DNA from: a virus
Taxonomy: Duplodnaviria > Caudoviricetes
IMG/VR virus record: IMGVR_UViG_3300013119_000806
Coordinates: 1-62,584 of that record
Reading direction: 5' to 3' (one strand)
Length of the DNA stretch: 62,584 nucleotides
Of this stretch, positions 1 to 38,400 are shown one piece after another (the stretch's first letter is position 1; every line of letters starts with the position of its first letter). The notes below the pieces were generated by a model that saw nothing but the letters and a program-made list of their open reading frames with translations, ran no database searches and was not told where the DNA came from. The position numbers were made by a program, and so were the translations under genes.

Positions 1-63
1 AATGGATATGGCAACTCACTTCTAATGAGTAGAATCCTGGTTCGAGTCCAGGCGGAAGTGCCA
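1..63 (+). tRNA. tRNA-Arg(TCT), 5' end truncated by window edge
   Basis: Anticodon arm ACTCA-CTTCTAA-TGAGT; T arm CCTGG-TTCGAGT-CCAGG; ends GCCA. Confidence 0.92.
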
Positions 64-65
64 AT

Positions 66-143
66 GCCGCTTTAGCTTAGTTGCTCCAAAGCACCCCACT
101 TGTAATGGGGAGATCCTGAGTTGGAATCTCAGAAGTGGCTCCA
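66..143 (+). tRNA. tRNA-Thr(TGT) with non-canonical C19/G56
   Basis: Acceptor GCCGCTT/AAGTGGC; D stem GCTT/AAGC; anticodon arm CCCCA-CTTGTAA-TGGGG; T arm CTGAG-TTGGAAT-CTCAG; encoded CCA. Confidence 0.9.
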
Positions 144-145
144 TC

Positions 146-175
146 AGTCCTGGTCATGACTATATAAACTGACTA
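146..175 (+). ncRNA. putative H-type pseudoknot in tRNA spacer (PK-a)
   Basis: S1 AGTC(146-149)/GACT(158-161); S2 TGGTCA(151-156)/TGACTA(170-175); A-rich L3 ATATAAAC. Confidence 0.55.
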
Positions 176-179
176 TTGT

Positions 180-255
180 GCGTCCATAACTCAATTGGTA
201 GAGTGTCAGCCTTCCAAGCTGAATGTTGTCGGTTCGAGGCCGACTGGACGCTCCA
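180..255 (+). tRNA. tRNA-Gly(TCC)
   Basis: Acceptor GCGTCCA/TGGACGC; anticodon arm TCAGC-CTTCCAA-GCTGA; T arm GTCGG-TTCGAGG-CCGAC; T73 and CCA. Confidence 0.95.
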
Positions 256-333
256 ATAATGCTCCTTGGTTCAAGCGACGGAAGGTGACTTTTCACCGCT
301 TTTTGTTGAATGCTAGAGCACAAACTACTCAGC

Positions 334-364
334 CATACTACATACTACATAATACATAATACAT
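334..364 (+). repeat. 7-bp tandem repeat (CATACTA x2, CATAATA x2, CAT)
   Basis: Read directly; flanked by the inverted pair ACTCA/TGAGT; lies just upstream of the HNH gene. Confidence 0.85.
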
Positions 365-383
365 TGAGTTAGGGGTCGATATA

Positions 384-731
384 ATGAATTATTGCAGGGA
401 ATGTAGCAAGGTGTTCGATTATACACCAGAATTGCGGAAAAAGGGTTATAGGAAGTCTCTCTGCAATTCTTGTTCTGTGACTCTAGCCAGACGCAGGCGT
501 AAACAGAAAGCAATAGATTATAAAGGGGGATGCTGTCAGGTTTGTGGTTACAACAAATATAATGGTGCATTACATTTTCATCATATCAAGCCAGACCATA
601 AGGATTTTGCATTCTCAGCTAAAGGTATTCCTAGAACCTGGGAGGCTCAGAAAGTCGAACTCGACAAATGCACCCTGTTATGTTCTAATTGTCACAGCGA
701 AACACACGCCGGTTTGCTTGATATTCACTAA
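384..731 (+). CDS. free-standing HNH endonuclease (homing-endonuclease-like) inside tRNA array
   Basis: N-terminal CxxC pairs, then CQVCG...LHFHH...LLCSNCH..TH (HNH zinc-finger motif); AGGGG SD upstream. Confidence 0.88.
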   Translation: MNYCRECSKVFDYTPELRKKGYRKSLCNSCSVTLARRRRKQKAIDYKGGCCQVCGYNKYNGALHFHHIKPDHKDFAFSAKGIPRTWEAQKVELDKCTLLCSNCHSETHAGLLDIH

Positions 732-741
732 CAGCCTTTTG

Positions 742-815
742 GGGGGATTAGCTCAGTTGGTAGTAGCGTTACCTTTGCAAGGTAAATGTCATCCGTTCGA
801 TCCGGATATCCTCCA
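742..815 (+). tRNA. tRNA-Ala(TGC), CCA not encoded (ends A-CAA)
   Basis: Acceptor GGGGGAT/ATCCTCC with G3:U70 and A73; anticodon arm TTACC-TTTGCAA-GGTAA; T arm ATCCG-TTCGATC-CGGAT. Confidence 0.93.
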
Positions 816-838
816 CAACAGAGTGCGATTCTGGCTCT

Positions 839-865
839 TGACCTTGGTAGGTCATAAAACTGCCA
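839..865 (+). ncRNA. putative H-type pseudoknot in tRNA spacer (PK-b)
   Basis: S1 TGAC(839-842)/GTCA(851-854); S2 TGGTAG(845-850)/CTGCCA(860-865); L3 TAAAA. Confidence 0.55.
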
Positions 866-869
866 TTAC

Positions 870-957
870 GGAGAGTTGGCCGAGTGGTCGAAGGCGGTTG
901 ATTAGAAATCATCTGTAGCGCAAGTTACCGAGAGTTCGAACCTCTCACTCTCCTCCA
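870..957 (+). tRNA. tRNA-Ser(AGA), A34 anticodon, long variable arm
   Basis: Acceptor GGAGAGT/ACTCTCC; Ser-type D arm GGCCGAGTGGTCGAAGGC; anticodon arm GTTGA-TTAGAAA-TCATC (one T.T mismatch); variable arm GTAGC-GCAA-GTTAC; T arm GAGAG-TTCGAAC-CTCTC; CCA. Confidence 0.88.
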
Positions 958-992
958 AAGAAGTTAGCTGATCTTCTTGATCCAAAATCAGC
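958..992 (+). ncRNA. putative H-type pseudoknot in tRNA spacer (PK-c)
   Basis: S1 AAGAAG(958-963)/CTTCTT(973-978); S2 GCTGAT(967-972)/ATCAGC(987-992); both are perfect 6-bp stems. Confidence 0.62.
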
Positions 993-997
993 CCTGT

Positions 998-1069
998 GCT
1001 CGCATCGTCTATCGGTTAGGACTCAAGGTTTTCATCCTTGCAAGTGGGGTTCGATTCCCCATGCGAGTA
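998..1069 (+). tRNA. tRNA-Glu(TTC), CCA not encoded (ends A-CAA)
   Basis: Acceptor GCTCGCA/TGCGAGT; anticodon arm CAAGG-TTTTCAT-CCTTG; T arm TGGGG-TTCGATT-CCCCA. Confidence 0.93.
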
Positions 1070-1078
1070 CAACAACAC

Positions 1079-1127
1079 TAAACCCACCCTTCTCATTAAA
1101 TTGAGTTGGGTGGGTTTTTCTTTTTTT
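1079..1127 (+). terminator. intrinsic terminator closing the tRNA operon
   Basis: AAACCCACCC...GGGTGGGTTT stem followed by a long T tract. Confidence 0.85.
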
Positions 1128-12622: not shown

Positions 12623-12745
12623 AGAGACTATAAATAACTAATAAGAGACTATAAATAACTAATAAGAGACTATAGATACTGATAAGAGACTATAAATAAC
12701 TAATAAGAGACTATAGATACTGATAAGAGACTATAGATACTGATA
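12623..12745 (+). repeat. six-unit tandem repeat, order A-A-B-A-B-B
   Basis: A=AGAGACTATAAATAACTAATA (21 bp), B=AGAGACTATAGATACTGATA (20 bp); exact copies with no spacers; ends 1 nt before tmRNA. Confidence 0.95.
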
Positions 12746-12746
12746 T

Positions 12747-13089
12747 GGGGATGAAATGGATTCGATTGGGAGGAAGAGATAGAGTAGTGCAGGGGTGAGG
12801 GAAGCGTGGCTCACTAAAAACGCTTAAAAAGATAATTGCAAATGACAATTTCAACATGGAGATGGCGGCGTAAAAACCTAACCACTCTTGAGGCGACAAC
12901 TGCCGATAAACAGAAAGTTGCTTGAGTAAGAGAACCCTCGGATGTCAATAAAAACTTCAGTGCTCAGAGGCAAAACAAAGCAAAGAAGTATAGTCAATGT
13001 TGTAATGACGATAAAATACAACTAACCCTGTGAACGATTGTTTTATTGATACTTTCAACACGACGGTTCGATGCCGTCCATCTCCACCA
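12747..13089 (+). ncRNA. ssrA: tmRNA, tag (A)ANDNFNMEMAA
   Basis: 5' GGGGATG..GGATTCGA pairs with 3' CATCTCC-A-CCA (G3:U70); T arm GACGG-TTCGATG-CCGTC; PK1 GTGAG/CTCAC plus AAGCGT/ACGCTT; resume codon GCA at 12838 after ATAATT, TAA at 12871-12873. Confidence 0.95.
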
Positions 13090-13119
13090 AGGAGCCTCTT
13101 CGGGGGCTCCTTTTTCTTT
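13089..13119 (+). terminator. intrinsic terminator after tmRNA
   Basis: AAGGAGCCTC-TTCG-GGGGCTCCTT-TTTCTTT. Confidence 0.88.
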
Positions 13120-13170
13120 GATGTCCAACCTATTTATAGATATAGAGAACCCCTAACAGCGAGGAATAAA

Positions 13171-15726
13171 ATGAAGAAGACCTACCTCTTGGACACTAAT
13201 GTCTACATGACCGATGCTAATGCCCTCTTCAAATTCGAAGACAACGACATTATCATCCCCACGATCATCCTCGATGAGATCGACCGACACAAGAGCCGCC
13301 AAGATTCAGCAGGAGCCCACGCCCGCCAGTTCAATCGCATCCTCGACGGACTCCGCTCAGAAGGCTCCCTCTATACAGGGATCAGTCTCGGCGAGAACAA
13401 AGGCACAATCAAGGTAGTCGCCTGCGACAACGAGAACCACCTCCCAGCAGGTTTCGACAAAGGACACTCAGACAACAAGATGCTCGCCGCCGCCCTAAGC
13501 CTCACCACCGAGGTCATCATCGTCAGTCGAGACATCAACTTCCGTGTCAAGTGCGACGCAGTCGGCATTCCCTGCGAAGGCTACGAGAACGAGAAGGTCG
13601 TAGACAACGCAGACGACCTCTACTCAGGCGTAGCCGATGTCCTCGTCCCAAGAGAGCAGATAGACCTCATCTACTCAGGAGGCGAAGTCATCCTTTCGGT
13701 AACAAAAGAAAAAGACCTCTACATCAATCAATACCTCGTCCTAGGAGCCGAAGAAGCCCCAAGGCAGACTATCCTCGTCAGATACCAAGGTAAAGGACTC
13801 CCACTAAGACGCCTACATACCTCACGAGAAGAAGTATGGGGACTGAGAGCGAGAAACAAAGAGCAAGAGTTCGCAATAGACGCCTTGATGGACCCTAACA
13901 TTAAACTGGTGACCCTCGTAGGACGAGCAGGCTCAGGGAAGACCTTGATAGCCATTGCAAGCGGTATGGAACAAGTGATACAAGCAAGAAAGCACAAGAC
14001 ACCCTTCACTAAGTTGATGGTGTCGAAGCCAGTAGAAGCGGTCGGCAAGGATATTGGGTTTTTGCCCGGTCCGCAGCCACTTGACGCTAAGATACTCACC
14101 CCATTTGGATGGTCTACAATGGGCGAGATGAAAATTGGTTCTGAGGTGATAACAGAGGAAGGGATTTCCGCAGAAGTTTTAGGTGTATATGACCAAGGTG
14201 TGAAGGATATCTACCAAGTCAAGACCACCGATGGAAGGGTGACCGAATGTTGTGCGGACCATTTGTGGTTTACAACTACGAATGCCGAGAGAAGACGCCC
14301 AGGTAATAACGGAAAAGTAAGAACTCTATTAGAAATAAAAGACACCCTACATTCCACCGATAAGAAGTTTTATGGGAAATTAGAACATATTTTACCCAAG
14401 GTGTTACCTGTGGTTTATAAGACAGAGGGTATAACAACGAAGGACATCCCTCCCTATGTGATGGGTGCTTTATTGGGTGATGGCTCTTTTGGCAAGAGCG
14501 GTAAAGTGTGTATAGCCAGCATCGATGAGGAAATAGTGAATCGCATTAGACGAGAACTTGAACCCATGGGGTGTGAACTCTCAAGCCCAAAGTCAGGGAT
14601 AGTGTATTCTATAAATGGGAGACTCTATAATAATAAAACCGCCAAAAGAGTACAAGTCACAGGTGAGAGTGGAAGCGATATTTATCATTCGGTCGGTTTG
14701 GCATCTGCAAAACTAGGTGTTAGCAGCGGCACAATTGGTTATCGATGCAAGAATAATAGCACTATTGATGGTAAGCGGTATAATTTCTTAGAACCTTCAA
14801 CACGCTGGACGAACCCCGTCAGGGAACAACTCCATTTGCTTGGTTTGTTAGGGAAGACAGGACAAGACAAATTTGTACCAAGAAAATATATGACTGCCAG
14901 TATAGAGGATCGTCTGAATCTGTTACGGGGATTGATGGATACCGACGGAGGGGTCAATAAGAAGAAAGGTAGCGCCTGTTTTTGGAACACATCTTATCAT
15001 CTGGCGAGTTCTGTGTGTGAGTTGGTGAGATCACTTGGGGGGACAGCAAAGATATCAGAGCGCCACCCACGAAAATCCACCTTTTTGGATGGAAGAGAGA
15101 TAAAATCAAATAAAACTTGTTATGAGGTCAACCTCTCAATACAAGGGGGATATAACCCGTTCTACCTTGCCAGGAAAGCAAAATATTATAAATCTAAATA
15201 TTCACGGATGATTAAGATTGAAAGCATTGAGAAAATAGGGCTTAAGGAAGCGAGGTGTATTAGAATTGGTAGCACTCGACATCTTTATGTAACTGATGAT
15301 TTTATTGTCACGCATAATACCTTAGAAGAGAAACTAGGACCTTGGCTCGCTCCGATCAAGGATAACTTGGAAGCATTGATGGGCGACAAGGTGGCTATGG
15401 AGACCTATATGGAGCAAGGCGTCATCGAGATCGAGGCAATCACTTTTATCCGTGGTCGTTCTATCGCCAATGCCTATATGATCATCGATGAAGCTCAGAA
15501 CCTCAATGTCCACGAGATCAAGACAATCCTCACCCGAGTAGCTGACGGAACAAAGATCATCTTGACAGGAGACATCCAACAGATCGACAACTCGTATGTA
15601 GACGCAGAATCTAACGGGTTGACTTATGCTGTTGAGAAGTTCAAGTCATACGAAATCAGCGCCCACATCACCCTATCGAAGGGTGAGCGAAGCGAACTAG
15701 CAACGTTAGCGGCAGAGATCCTATGA
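13171..15726 (+). CDS. phoH: PIN-PhoH (PhoH2-type) protein interrupted by an intein
   Basis: PIN motifs LDTNV, EID, SDNKML, SRDINFR; Walker A GRAGSGKT; IGFLPG; IRGRSI; IIDEAQN; GDIQQID. True start is ATG 13171 after GAGGA. Confidence 0.93.
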   Translation: MKKTYLLDTNVYMTDANALFKFEDNDIIIPTIILDEIDRHKSRQDSAGAHARQFNRILDGLRSEGSLYTGISLGENKGTIKVVACDNENHLPAGFDKGHSDNKMLAAALSLTTEVIIVSRDINFRVKCDAVGIPCEGYENEKVVDNADDLYSGVADVLVPREQIDLIYSGGEVILSVTKEKDLYINQYLVLGAEEAPRQTILVRYQGKGLPLRRLHTSREEVWGLRARNKEQEFAIDALMDPNIKLVTLVGRAGSGKTLIAIASGMEQVIQARKHKTPFTKLMVSKPVEAVGKDIGFLPGPQPLDAKILTPFGWSTMGEMKIGSEVITEEGISAEVLGVYDQGVKDIYQVKTTDGRVTECCADHLWFTTTNAERRRPGNNGKVRTLLEIKDTLHSTDKKFYGKLEHILPKVLPVVYKTEGITTKDIPPYVMGALLGDGSFGKSGKVCIASIDEEIVNRIRRELEPMGCELSSPKSGIVYSINGRLYNNKTAKRVQVTGESGSDIYHSVGLASAKLGVSSGTIGYRCKNNSTIDGKRYNFLEPSTRWTNPVREQLHLLGLLGKTGQDKFVPRKYMTASIEDRLNLLRGLMDTDGGVNKKKGSACFWNTSYHLASSVCELVRSLGGTAKISERHPRKSTFLDGREIKSNKTCYEVNLSIQGGYNPFYLARKAKYYKSKYSRMIKIESIEKIGLKEARCIRIGSTRHLYVTDDFIVTHNTLEEKLGPWLAPIKDNLEALMGDKVAMETYMEQGVIEIEAITFIRGRSIANAYMIIDEAQNLNVHEIKTILTRVADGTKIILTGDIQQIDNSYVDAESNGLTYAVEKFKSYEISAHITLSKGERSELATLAAEIL
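14071..15318 (+). mobile_element. class 3 intein (416 aa) with LAGLIDADG endonuclease and NUMOD1-like insert
   Basis: Inserted at FLPG|TLEEKL. Starts PQPLDAKILTP; block B ADHLW; block F ARCIRI; block G IVTHN; LAGLIDADG motifs MGALLGDG and LRGLMDTDG. Confidence 0.9.
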
Positions 15727-35400: not shown

Positions 35401-38400
35401 GGCAAAGAAGGAGTATGTATACTCTGGGCAACAGAGGCTACCAGAGCAAGTATATCCAGAGGACATGATTAAGGTCCTTGATGCCGACGACGAGATATTC
35501 ACCCCTCACACACGACCCACCAAGTTCTTCTTTGCTGTTGAGAAGAGTATGTATGACTCTATATCGCAGAAGATGTTGGAGTTGTTTGCCTCCATAAAGG
35601 AGTTCAACAACCTCATTGGCGACCCAATACACAAGTATCGCCAAGACTACAAGTCTATGGAGAAGATGCGGGACATTTTCTACGCCAACGTTGGCAACGA
35701 TCCTGATCTCGATAAATACCTTGACTACTACAAGTGGCTAGATTCTTCTATGGGCGGAATGATCGAGCAACTCTTCCCCGCCTCAGCGCGGGTTGCCGAT
35801 GATATTCGTGTTGTCGTTGAGTCACACATTTTAGAAAGAAGTAAATATCACCACAAGTTCCCAACCTTGGAACCTCGCCCTCATGATCCTGAGACTAGCT
35901 TCCGAGGGGTCGGTTGCGGAAACAAGTATTCTTGGAAATTCAACCATGCCCCACTAGACACGAGTGTTGTCCCTGTCACAGAGGGGACAGACCAGTCTGT
36001 CAATTGTGGCTGGTGGAACTCTCGTTGGGAGCGAACTCACGCCAACCCTGCGGTACAGACTGCCATCCGCACCCTTGACGACAGAATCAGCAACCTTCCA
36101 TATCCCTACCGCAACAAAGGCGAGACAATTCCATTTGAGGCAACAGCCCCTGTGTGTTTGACGGCGGGCATAGAGAATAGTTATGCTGGCGGAGTCAATC
36201 AGGAGAGAAACAAGGTTCGAAATGTGACCGACATAGTCATCGACAACATAGAGCAACCAGTTCCTTTGTGTGGGGACGAGCCCACCCCAAACAAGCAACG
36301 AGTCGTGACTTTTCGCTCTACGAAAGACGGCAAGTCCTATGCTGGCGACCTCCTTTCCCCGTTCAGTCTATATTCATCAAGTGTGGATACGGGCTACCGA
36401 GCATATCTCGAAACCCAAGGTTTCTCCGACATCGATTTCACCAACATCCACGAGGATTCCTATCACAATACTCGCTATGAGGTCCCGATGCAGGGACCAT
36501 TCACAAGTCAACATGTTGGCGGACTACTCTATCGCAACACGGTGGCACTAGACCCAACCACAACGGGACGCCGAGAGGCACATGTCGGGACATTTGCCGC
36601 TGGCACAGCATCCTTTGTCTCAATCACCACACAAGAGGGGGCATCCTCACCTGCCAAGGGGCAATATTATCGCGACAATGTATCCAAATCCCCGGCAAAC
36701 ATAAAAAACATTAGAACAACAAGTACCAACAGGATACTTGGCAACTTCACCAAGAACTACGAAGTGGTACAAACGCAGGACAGGAGCATCAACAACCTTG
36801 ACCTCCGCCTAAACACATCAAACTACGATGTCACGGGGTCTCTCTCGACAGTCATCGGCGGACTAGTAGATTACGAGATCCCTCAGCGCAAGGCGAACTT
36901 CGTAGCCAACGACACGGTGATCGTGGAGCGATTCGCAGCCCCTGGCGGACCATCGGTCAACACACCACACCACCTCGACCTGACATCACTCCAATTCTCG
37001 CCAAACAACGCACTCCCATTCAGGAACTTGATTGTCCGCACTCCATTGCGCGATGCTCTAACCAAGGCTCATTCGTGGGGCGGCTTCATCGACGGTGTGT
37101 ATCCAGAAGTAATTGATGACCCAGGAACGGCAGTCACTTTGCCAGACCTCAACGAGGCAGGTTATAGCACAAATATCACCTCAATTCACAAGACCCCACA
37201 GAACGGGCTACAAAGGATCAAGAAAAGCGGAGCATCGTTCGTTACTGCCTCTGTAAATGACAATGCTTTCATAAATCACGCAGTCCCGCAGGGTGATCGC
37301 TATCACTGGTTTATGTCATTGAGCGGTAGTGATGTCGCTCACGTCGAATACGACCTTCTCACCCCAGGCACTTATGTCGCGGGTTATGGAGCGAATAGAA
37401 CACTTCATGATGAGTTCATCAACAATAACTCAACATACCCCAGCCGTGAGAATCGCCATGGCATAGCGCTTCCCGTTTCTGAGCCTGTTGGGGCTGGACT
37501 CGTCGGAGCCCTCTCTGTTATCGGCACAGATTACCGCTCTGCCGACGCTCAGGACGGGGCTTATACAAAAACCTCAATAGGTAACCCCACAGAGTTCAAA
37601 TACAAGTGGGCTGCCGACTACCACGACCGAGTCGGCGTTTGGTCCCCGGTGTCCCAACTCCGTGTTAGTGAGACGCCCCTTGGTCGCATCCCTCGTCAAA
37701 CCAACGAGATCACGGCATATAAAGCATCACTCAACGCCGATGGAACCGAAACTATAACCACCGAGGTATATCGTGAGCCAGTAGTCATTTCCAGGCACAG
37801 ACCAATGAAGCACCTTGTGGTTGCTTATCTCGGCACCGCTGGTCGTGATGCCGCCAACAGGTTCGGCGATGTCGCTTTGGAATATTCCTATGGAAACATC
37901 AAGCAGGGTTTCGCTTATGATGAGGCAAACAACGACTTCAATTTCAACCCAAACTCCGACCCTCGCCCATTCGATGTAATCTCACGAGTATCAAGAGAGT
38001 TCAACGAAGGCAACGAGTCTGCTTATCGAGTAGCCGGCATAAAAGAAATAAAAGAGTTTACATATGAAGAGGTGATATATCCGAAGAGCGAATACGCATA
38101 CCTACCAGAGACCCGAACTCGAATAAGTGGGTCCTCGGCTGTAGCCTATTGGAGAGACAATGGGTTTGAGATGACCGAGGCGGTTTATGAGACGAAACGG
38201 ACAGAGTTGAGTGCGAGGTTTATTGATGAAGCATCGTGGTCAGTATCTGGAAACCTCGCTCATTTTGTCAATGAGGTATCACAATCCGTCACTAATCCAG
38301 AATATACTCGTTTGGTTGAGGGAAAGGCGACAAGCCAAGGAACTGTTATTCCCAAGAAGAACCAGGTGGCGAGGTGGGCCCTCGCAGCCGAGGTAACAGG

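Follow-up and report, generated by a model that had tools for sequence, protein, structure and literature searches.

What are the compact RNA folds that occupy the spacers of a transfer RNA (tRNA) array in the virus record IMGVR_UViG_3300013119_000806? The window analysed here is the whole 62,584-nt record of this uncultured marine phage. Its 5' end begins within the array, which runs from a partial tRNA through tRNA-Thr, a 36-nt spacer, tRNA-Gly, an open reading frame (ORF) for an HNH protein, tRNA-Ala, a 53-nt spacer, tRNA-Ser, a 40-nt spacer and tRNA-Glu to a hairpin with a U-run. The three spacers hold predicted H-type pseudoknots, PK-a, PK-b and PK-c (each with stems S1 and S2 and loops L1 to L3; Table 1), which an earlier reading of the window (the original prediction) had described as a single fold made from three unrelated sets of stem sequences. 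That description does not hold, because PK-a and PK-b are relatives in sequence. They are very probably two diverged copies of one widespread, uncatalogued RNA family (family 1), each co-transcribed with the tRNAs and folded as an H-type pseudoknot. PK-c belongs elsewhere: it is probably a member of a second, rarer family (family 2) with the same topology, also co-transcribed with tRNAs.

A letter-by-letter check located all twelve stem strands of the three pseudoknots, and ARAGORN and Rfam confirmed that the knots end 4, 4 and 5 nt ahead of tRNA-Gly (180), tRNA-Ser (870) and tRNA-Glu (998). The stems of PK-c are entirely Watson-Crick, and S2 of PK-a includes one G-U pair. In family 1, C-G closes an S1 of 4 bp, L1 is a single invariant C, S2 has 5-6 bp and L3 ends in AAAC (consensus N-GUCC-UGGGUA-U-GAC-N'-UUAAAC-UGCCCA). 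The S1 and L1 features are present in PK-a (AGUC/GACU with C150) and PK-b (UGAC/GUCA with C843) and are lacking in PK-c, in which S1 is closed by G-C and L1 is UUA. PK-a and PK-b align gap-free over S1, L1, the 5' strand of S2 and L2, and have the AAAC-UG of the 3' part in common. Both occupy the co-oriented, non-coding boundary between units that is typical of the family, here between co-oriented tRNAs. The original prediction drew S2 of PK-b as 845-850/860-865, with one U-G pair; the family frame excludes the G850-C860 pair, G850 being L2 and C860 the C of the conserved AAAC in L3.

We identified the family through a 14-mer, GTCCTGGGTATGAC, which occurs in at least 118 IMG/VR contigs. A matching 3' half (A's, a C, then U(G/A)CC) follows 96 of the 119 14-mer instances listed. 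The counts given below for family 1 rest on the 81 distinct members among these listed matches, which were seeded by the exact 14-mer. A separate descriptor, based on the plant-virus element coremin (described below), found 6 matches in 120 unrelated control loci (1.06 Mb), four of them near-copies of PK-a.

Two covariance models were built without the window, R1 from 49 sequences and R2 from 66 sequences of other phages, 17 of which lack the 14-mer. Both were run over the whole window, on both strands and with filters off. R1 placed PK-a at the top of the window (22.5 bits, E 1.6e-4), and R2 ranked PK-a first (27.6 bits, E 5.5e-5, with all six S2 pairs standard) and PK-b second (19.4 bits, E 6.5e-3), the next match scoring 10.1 bits; these E-values are rough, as they come from short calibrations. 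R2 did not match PK-c in the window. In the control arrays R2 recovered diverged members, with S1 as GAC/GUC, CUC/GAG or CAC/GUG and S2 as UGAGCA/UGCUCA or UGGACA/UGUCC. The GAC/GUC form of S1, as in PK-b, is also found in contigs L247, L034 and L042.

Both helices of family 1 covary. In an alignment of 30 sequences (A4; PK-a and PK-b are included, and 27 of the sequences were chosen independently of the 14-mer), the paired fraction of cells is 94.8%, and falls to 26-43% when the partners are slid. Seven of the ten pairs, four of the six S2 pairs among them, show changes on both sides (44 cells), and the covariation score of 0.486 was reached by none of 500 shuffles (0.195 in shuffles). Alignment columns 6, 7 and 17 are invariant or nearly so. 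PK-a keeps all six S2 pairs of the consensus, two of them compensated (G-C to U-A and U-G to C-G), and PK-b retains five S2 pairs and has two S1 pairs flipped, as in L247. The commonest state of one S2 pair is U-G (46 of 66 members), which fits a fold read as RNA from this strand only.

These results bear on the simplest rival explanation, that the knots are chance complementarity in unconstrained spacers or relics of decayed tRNAs. The descriptor used in the original prediction was composed after the data had been seen; it matches the + strand of the window 20 times (0.32 per kb), three of these being the spacers (130 nt), and dinucleotide shuffles match it in 24, 56 and 10 of 5000 cases for the spacers of PK-a, PK-b and PK-c. 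Since it was post hoc, we added a generic search, not tuned to that descriptor, in which the best H-type knot of two helices was sought (stems of 3-8 bp, wide loop ranges). The same three pseudoknots emerged as the best in their spacers, and shuffled spacers gave equal knots in only 80 (PK-a), 125 (PK-b) and 1 (PK-c) of 6000 cases, so the original prediction withstood the shuffling that it had named as a way to refute it. As a positive control, pseudoknot PK1 of the phage's own transfer-messenger RNA (tmRNA) was recovered at 12794-12825, with none of 300 shuffles as good, which bears out the likeness in topology that had been noticed between PK1 and the spacer knots.

Some features of the spacers are ordinary. 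The fractions of shuffles at least as stable in nested minimum free energy are 0.62, 0.18 and 0.19 for the three spacers, and natural spacers are commonly structured (8 of 41 controls at p<=0.05). The generic energy statistic, a sum over helices, is inflated in natural spacers (7/41 at p<=0.02, from single strong hairpins) and, being uncalibrated on them, was never relied on alone; a compact pseudoknot with both helices equally strong was found in one of the 41 control spacers. In the spacers of other phage tRNA arrays the descriptor of the original prediction matches at the level of chance (2 of 95 distinct spacers versus 2.15 expected, from about 120 arrays). A promoter reading of the spacers was rejected: no sigma-70-like site was found on their + strand, and the shared AAAC-UG motif occurs elsewhere in the window at background frequency (20 matches versus 15.4 expected). 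The tRNA-relic reading was likewise set aside, since the sole region to score, and then marginally, is the 5' part of the Ala-Ser spacer. This part (818-845), upstream of PK-b, weakly resembles a tRNA T-arm and acceptor end and may be the relic of a lost tRNA; its tRNA-like score is 28, its best match is the tRNA-Cys of contig L046, and 3 of 60 shuffles equal it.

One strain variant also touches PK-b. The stretch is present in five runs of marine metagenomes, drawn from two studies and none of them recorded as RNA. In four runs the contigs match the window exactly over PK-a and PK-c, and a contig of run X3 (810-1360, depth 5.4) lacks base 837 and carries T845A, G850A and A854C in PK-b. The view of this variant as breaking three of the ten originally drawn pairs without compensation was dropped once the family frame was applied. 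In that frame one change hits the bulged position of S2, one lies in L2 and one alters the outermost S1 pair, which is unpaired in 12 of 66 members. As these positions are variable or unpaired, the variant is uninformative and the conserved core of PK-b is unbroken. Chance is opposed by the matches to a model from unrelated phages, by covariation and by the recurrence of PK-c (below). For PK-a and PK-b it is already refuted by the covariance-model ranking together with the covariation, and for the three knots as a whole we consider chance or relic origin extremely improbable.

We searched for close relatives of the phage with a tRNA array and found none, either via neighbouring proteins or via DNA patterns derived from the tRNAs. 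The endolysin search returned three loci, none with tRNAs; the search with ORF 3418 returned four, with tRNAs in one large contig only (spacers of 10-22 nt); and the baseplate protein search returned five short contigs without tRNAs. DNA patterns from the window's tRNAs gave at least 120 unrelated loci, no loci or 13 chance loci, depending on the pattern, and metagenome scans for a related array gave no loci and one distant locus.

The module is conserved beyond this phage: PK-a and PK-b match a model from unrelated phages, both helices of their family carry the compensatory changes that had been proposed as a check, and PK-c recurs. To this extent the original prediction of a conserved functional module of about 30 nt stands, as does its setting 4-5 nt ahead of tRNAs. 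The proposed specificity for tRNA spacers does not, as 68 of the 81 listed members of family 1 have no tRNA within 100 nt and half begin 4-14 nt past the stop codon of a same-strand ORF (40/81, mostly 5-6 nt). No listed member lies within a same-strand ORF of >=70 aa, and one lies within an opposite-strand ORF. The distance to the next ORF is variable. A -10-like hexamer occurs within 45 nt downstream in 27 of 64 cases, compared with 12/64 and 9/64 in control windows. The upstream genes, named by eye, are presumably a small heat-shock protein, a catalase-peroxidase, an AhpD-like protein and a secreted peptidase, among others. An RNA of a mobile element tied to one protein was considered and rejected, as the upstream ORFs are of many kinds.

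A tRNA starts 3-7 nt downstream of 13 of the 81 listed members, at exactly 4 nt in eight. This spacing, together with the fixed linkers of 4, 4 and 5 nt in the window and of 4-5 nt in the copies of PK-c, would be expected of a tRNA-processing determinant, in which the knot positions or times cleavage by RNase P or by the endonuclease that acts on the 3' end of the upstream tRNA. A knot in Nostoc phage NMeng1 that ends 1-2 nt ahead of an annotated tRNA-like gene fits the same idea, and small pseudoknots can serve as RNase P substrates (PMC12710915), the pseudoknot substrates described there needing an RCCA that the 3' tails of the present knots lack. The many members without a nearby tRNA also argue against such a role, as do tRNA-Thr (2-nt spacer) and tRNA-Ala (10 nt past the ORF) of the window, which do without a knot ahead of them. 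Ten of the 13 tRNA-adjacent members belong to one locus type, with tRNA-Asn in related contigs, so the independent tRNA-adjacent cases are few. We regard a dedicated role in tRNA processing as distinctly improbable.

The carriers of family 1 are diverse. Unannotated copies of the motif occur in a microvirus from rodent gut, in Microbacterium phage Count, in Corynebacterium phages phi673/phi674 and in NMeng1; R2 scores four of these copies at 39-46 bits, and the four copies in cultured phages are all co-oriented with the neighbouring genes. A 25-letter pattern found 52 stretches of prokaryote assemblies from many phyla, nearly all of them metagenome-assembled genomes. In 8 of 10 bacterial loci tested, the next gene encodes an Rrf2-family regulator.

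Two further elements were seen in phage tRNA arrays. In Synechococcus phage S-RIM2 (KX349229.1; L271 365-396) the spacer after tRNA-Leu holds a weak knot, AGUC-C-CGAG-AU-GACU-UGAAA-CUCG (R2 9.8 bits, E 0.35), and family 1 may thus extend past the model's reach. A different element precedes tRNA-Leu or tRNA-Ala in four phage arrays (L019 2507-2561, L039 3950-4006, L061 1575-1630 and L083 204-256); it has an 8-bp long-range helix that co-varies (UUGUAUGC, UUGUUGAC and UUGAUUGA with their partners) and encloses a conserved GUAUAAU.

PK-c has relatives of its own. A 17-mer from its 5' half occurs in five viral contigs, and two of these (L325 and L329) carry the whole module, identical at 35 of 36 positions, the single difference being in L3. 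Both copies begin right after a tRNA 3' end and stop 4-5 nt before the next tRNA. The flanking genes are tRNA-Met and then tRNA-Arg in L329, and an uncalled tRNA-like end followed by tRNA-Gly(UCC) in L325. The remaining 12 kb of the L325 and L329 loci are dissimilar to the window, save for the tRNA-Gly of L325. The same module in the same kind of place in dissimilar contigs argues for PK-c as a second conserved module. Its stems are invariant across the three instances, so covariation cannot judge it. The tRNA-Gly(UCC) of L325 (1232-1309, - strand) is 86% identical to that of the window and is preceded by the PK-c type of knot, not the PK-a type that precedes its relative here, which suggests that the knots are interchangeable in that slot. 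In cultured phages PK-c gave only chance matches within genes.

By sequence comparison both families are uncatalogued, and the closest known element is coremin, the exonuclease-resistant RNA xrRNA-C of beny-, cucumo- and other RNA viruses (PMC6546385). As PMC10520033 and PMC10321173 describe it, coremin consists of a 4-bp hairpin whose loop is YGAD, the spacer found in the 20-mer GUCCGAAGACGUUAAACUAC and another hairpin, which is also required; it stalls Xrn1 and scanning ribosomes and stimulates -1 frameshifting. In its Watson-Crick variant, xrRNA-WCC, loop and spacer form a 3-bp S2 (PMC10520033, PMC10321173). Like family 1, coremin has a 4-bp first hairpin with a GUC/GAC core, a 1-nt pyrimidine L1, an A-rich crossing strand and the 3' strand GUUAAACU(A/G)C, and the GUCC, GAC and GUUAAACU(A)C blocks of its 20-mer (PMC10520033) are common to the family-1 consensus. 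GACGUUAAACU occurs in 21 and GACGUUAAACUAC in 5 of the 81 listed members. The coremin spacer, in which the first hairpin (hp1) is followed by 8-10 nt with ...AAACUAC (PMC10520033), has its counterpart in the consensus (GAC-G-UUAAACU(G/A)C), in PK-a (GACU-AUAUAAAC-UGAC) and in PK-b (GUCA-UAAAAC-UGCC). The xrRNA-WCC variant also has the H-type topology of family 1, with its loop pairing to the 3' strand, and both coremin and family 1 are non-coding and lie at the boundaries of RNA units.

There are also differences. The loop of family 1 is 8 nt long (C-UGGGUA-U) and makes 5-6 Watson-Crick or wobble pairs, compared with the tetraloop and non-canonical contact of coremin and the three pairs of xrRNA-WCC. 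The consensus of the coremin loop lp1 (YGAD/YGNNAD) is not found in PK-a (CUGGUCAU) or PK-b (CUUGGUAG), where the first letter is Y and the second U rather than G. In the window the acceptor helix of a tRNA begins 4-5 nt past the knot, where coremin has its second hairpin (hp2). The carriers of family 1 are DNA phages, a microvirus and bacteria, which are without Xrn1, whereas coremin is an element of plant RNA viruses. PK-c has only topology in common with coremin.

Other known RNAs are more distant. wcaG RNA (RF01761), an orphan RNA of marine cyanophages, appears by eye in its S-RIM2 copy (56 bits) as two tandem mini-pseudoknots of the same topology, each built of a short S1 rich in purines, an L1 rich in U, an S2 of 4-5 bp and an L3 with an A-run before the 3' strand of S2. 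PK-c has a similar look in architecture only (AAGAAG, UUA and CCAAA before AUCAGC), and is single and between tRNAs where the wcaG units are in tandem and ahead of a gene. RF01761 does not match 958-997 at E<=10, and its sole match in the whole contig is at 36031-36098 (- strand, E 0.55); R2 does not match wcaG RNA. A descriptor resembling the wcaG unit, applied past tRNA 3' ends, matched 10 of 1033 flanks (5.8 expected), and only PK-c was strong. PK1 of tmRNA (RF00023; phage copy at 12747-13089) is H-type, with two 6-bp stems and an A-rich L3 like those of the spacer knots, but it is part of a 343-nt RNA of known role and the likeness is one of generic topology only. R2 does not match the tmRNA, and no knot lies ahead of its gene; the leader of that gene (12700-12746) is a 20-nt direct repeat, with two copies of ATAAGAGACTATAGATACTG. 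The 3'ETS-leuZ sponge of E. coli and species 1 and 2 of phage T4 are, we take it, non-tRNA RNAs that tRNA-processing enzymes free from tRNA precursors. They are longer than the knots, and pair with targets by unpaired stretches or lack a known fold of this kind.

The claim of the original prediction that no named family fits held in the searches it had called for. Among Rfam riboswitch and ribozyme models (preQ1-I included) none matched the isolated spacers at E<=10, which drew only short chance matches to small nucleolar and long non-coding RNA models, and no model of Rfam 15 matched the spacers, seven family-1 loci (canonical members, E<=5) or 18 bacterial loci. In the literature searched (supplementary tables were outside its scope) the motif string occurs only as part of unrelated primers, coremin and bacteriophages come up together only in one paper on plant viruses, and neither family of pseudoknots in tRNA-array spacers is described.

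The preQ1-I riboswitch and other small pseudoknot aptamers have the size (about 30-35 nt), the H-type fold and the A-rich L3 of the spacer knots. One rival reading is a binding module: an aptamer for a small ligand or protein, or a stable RNA freed by tRNA processing that acts in trans as a decoy. The unpaired C of L1, the closing C-G and the AAAC of L3 are near-invariant across phages of very different hosts, so that unpaired positions are as conserved as the stems, which is more than a mere obstacle would need. Each knot of the window lies between two tRNA processing sites, where release of a free 36-54-nt RNA is plausible, and a phage-encoded pseudoknot RNA reportedly mimics the ToxI antitoxin. 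The position ahead of Rrf2-family regulators in bacteria is sensor-like. The phage knots, in contrast to such aptamers, are mostly 3' of genes, as the 40 listed members just past a stop codon show, and the genes upstream are of many kinds. The riboswitch models also speak against binding, as do the two unrelated knot families at the same kind of site (the tRNA-Gly of L325 with its PK-c type of knot), for which a generic structural role fits better than one ligand. On balance we think that a binding function is unlikely.

The function that we tentatively prefer, short of thinking it probable, is that the knots act as nuclease roadblocks at boundaries within multi-gene transcripts. The fold, its conservation and its placement are observed; for the steps that involve enzymes, we propose the following. 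The knot would mark such a boundary passively, as a mechanical obstacle. RNase P contacts the leader of its substrate, for which a few unpaired nucleotides would be needed, and the knot would leave exactly 4-5. Before the RNase P cut, the knot would shield the next pre-tRNA from RNase J or scanning RNase E, which depend on the 5' end. After the cut, the upstream fragment would end in a knot, and the tail beyond it would be too short to be engaged by 3'-to-5' exonucleases, since RNase R, RNase II and PNPase need a tail of more than 4-5 nt. As to direction, we lean slightly towards a 3'-end cap, because the position of the knot is tied to the stop codon upstream of it, promoter-like hexamers lie downstream and the tail left by RNase P would be 4-5 nt. 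A 5'-side shield would be favoured by the core, which is that of coremin, a staller of Xrn1, and by the finding that a flaviviral xrRNA halts bacterial RNase J1 in vitro (PMC5760640).

Several observations weigh against the roadblock. PK-c and PK-a begin 0 and 2 nt past an encoded CCA (PK-c immediately after that of tRNA-Ser), where a stable knot would be expected to get in the way when exonucleases trim the upstream tRNA. For PK-b, a nested 6-bp hairpin at 839-854 is a competing fold. R1 finds only three matches per 100 control loci in phage tRNA arrays, a rarity which indicates that tRNA processing does not need the module. A hairpin like the hp2 of coremin is not enriched within 0-8 nt downstream (8 of 67 non-tRNA members, compared with 9/67 in the control and 9.3 in shuffles). 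U-runs are not enriched past the knot either (15/64 versus 18/64 in the control), the result on which a role as intrinsic terminator was rejected.

The last point concerns translation. In 20 of the 52 bacterial loci (L273-L324) a conserved tiny ORF (18-31 aa) that has a strong ribosome-binding site terminates within the knot or at its start, for example at L276 5918-5992 (- strand) and L301 1818-1892 (+ strand). The core of the tiny ORF is RYMLRPVAHCKEGC, and its stop is either a UGA in the knot (L2 and the 3' strand of S1) or a UAG at the first bases of the knot. The peptide has no significant match in Pfam or NCBIfam, a single row (E 0.03) being far under the model cut-off. A stop codon formed inside the knot would make translation and folding mutually exclusive and points to a link with translation rather than decay, and the combination of tiny ORF, knot and Rrf2 gene in bacteria hints at an additional role in regulation. 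In a translation-linked function the target of the knot would be a ribosome that is terminating or has just terminated: the knot could prevent read-through, sliding or re-initiation into the next unit, or could couple the fate of the RNA to translation of the ORF upstream. Consistent with this, 33 of the 81 listed members begin 4-8 nt past a stop codon, which is the spacing of recoding pseudoknots. The effects of coremin on frameshifting and scanning, as given in PMC10321173 and PMC10520033, point the same way. No knot of the window follows an ORF, though: PK-a and PK-c follow tRNAs at 2 and 0 nt, PK-b comes after tRNA-Ala, and the PK-c copies in L325 and L329 are also between tRNAs. If one function serves every context, it therefore cannot depend on the ribosome, and we rate the translation-linked explanation as low as the tRNA-processing one.

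The features of the array are collected in Table 1.

Table 1. Features of the tRNA array and its spacer pseudoknots, with positions in the window.
Feature	Positions	Strand	Details
Partial tRNA	1-63		Window start
tRNA-Thr(UGU), CCA encoded	66..143	+	ARAGORN; Rfam tRNA 61.8 bits; 2 nt upstream of PK-a
PK-a, family-1 (coremin-like) H-type pseudoknot	146..175	+	S1 146-149/158-161; L1 C150; S2 151-156/170-175; L2 U157; L3 162-169
Linker UUGU, 4 nt, single-stranded	176..179	+	PK-a to RNase P site of tRNA-Gly
tRNA-Gly(UCC), CCA encoded	180..255	+	ARAGORN, Rfam
HNH endonuclease ORF, 115 aa	384-731		Within tRNA array; Pfam HNH E 9.5e-4, below curated cut-off
tRNA-Ala(UGC), CCA not encoded	742..816	+	ARAGORN, Rfam; 10 nt past HNH ORF, 22 nt ahead of PK-b
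PK-b, family-1 pseudoknot, S1 variant	839..865	+	S1 839-842/851-854 (UGAC/GUCA); L1 C843; L2 G850; L3 855-860
PK-b S2 in family frame	U844 and 846-849 with 861-865		U845 bulged in model alignment
Linker UUAC, 4 nt	866..869	+	PK-b to tRNA-Ser
tRNA-Ser(AGA)	870..957	+	Encoded CCA 955-957; ARAGORN, Rfam
PK-c, family-2 pseudoknot module	958..992	+	S1 958-963/973-978; L1 964-966; S2 967-972/987-992; L2 0 nt; L3 979-986
Linker CCUGU, 5 nt	993..997	+	PK-c to tRNA-Glu
tRNA-Glu(UUC), CCA not encoded	998..1070	+	ARAGORN, Rfam
Strong hairpin and U-run closing the array	about 1080-1125		Nested fold -24.5 kcal/mol

Other features of the array and its surroundings were also identified. In tRNA-Ala and tRNA-Glu (815-822 and 1069-1078) a discriminator A is followed by CAACA, and Thr, Gly and Ser have an encoded CCA. 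Downstream of tRNA-Gly, at 284-307, is a terminator-like hairpin with a U-run, so the array may comprise two transcription units. Upstream of the HNH ORF, at 335-365, a 7-nt unit (CATACTA / CATAATA) is repeated in tandem about 4.5 times, and contig depth around it is erratic in the metagenome runs. DNA resembling the HNH ORF is present in Lak megaphages and in Yersinia phage fHe-Yen9-04. Outside the array, an ORF at 13030-15726 (898 aa) encodes PIN and PhoH domains, and a LAGLIDADG homing-endonuclease segment at residues 616-703 interrupts it in an intein-like manner.

The present work contributes an independent test of family 1, the assignment of PK-a and PK-b to it, the discovery of the PK-c module, statistics on stop codons and promoters, the negative result for hp2 and the bacterial combination of tiny ORF, knot and Rrf2 regulator. 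If our reading holds, one fold of about 30 nt with a near-fixed core is common to RNA viruses of plants, to tailed phages that infect actinobacteria, firmicutes or cyanobacteria, to a microvirus and to numerous uncultured bacteria. The long, conserved spacers in some phage tRNA arrays would be explained, RNA catalogues would gain a new family, and engineered RNA arrays punctuated by tRNAs would gain a tiny stabilising or insulating part. How phages and bacteria set the ends and lifetimes of transcript pieces without protein factors would become testable, as cultured carriers exist (Microbacterium phage Count, Corynebacterium phage phi673 and Nostoc phage NMeng1). A bolder extension, in our view fairly unlikely, is that the coremin-type knot is no speciality of plant viruses but a minimal signal that halts processive RNA machines universally, in DNA phages of many hosts, in microviruses and in bacteria. 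Were this so, PK-a and PK-b would be members of the first class of exonuclease-resistant RNA from the prokaryotic world, phages would cut their transcripts at tRNA processing sites into knot-capped, long-lived pieces, and PK-c would have evolved independently as a second solution, exchangeable with the first at the same site.

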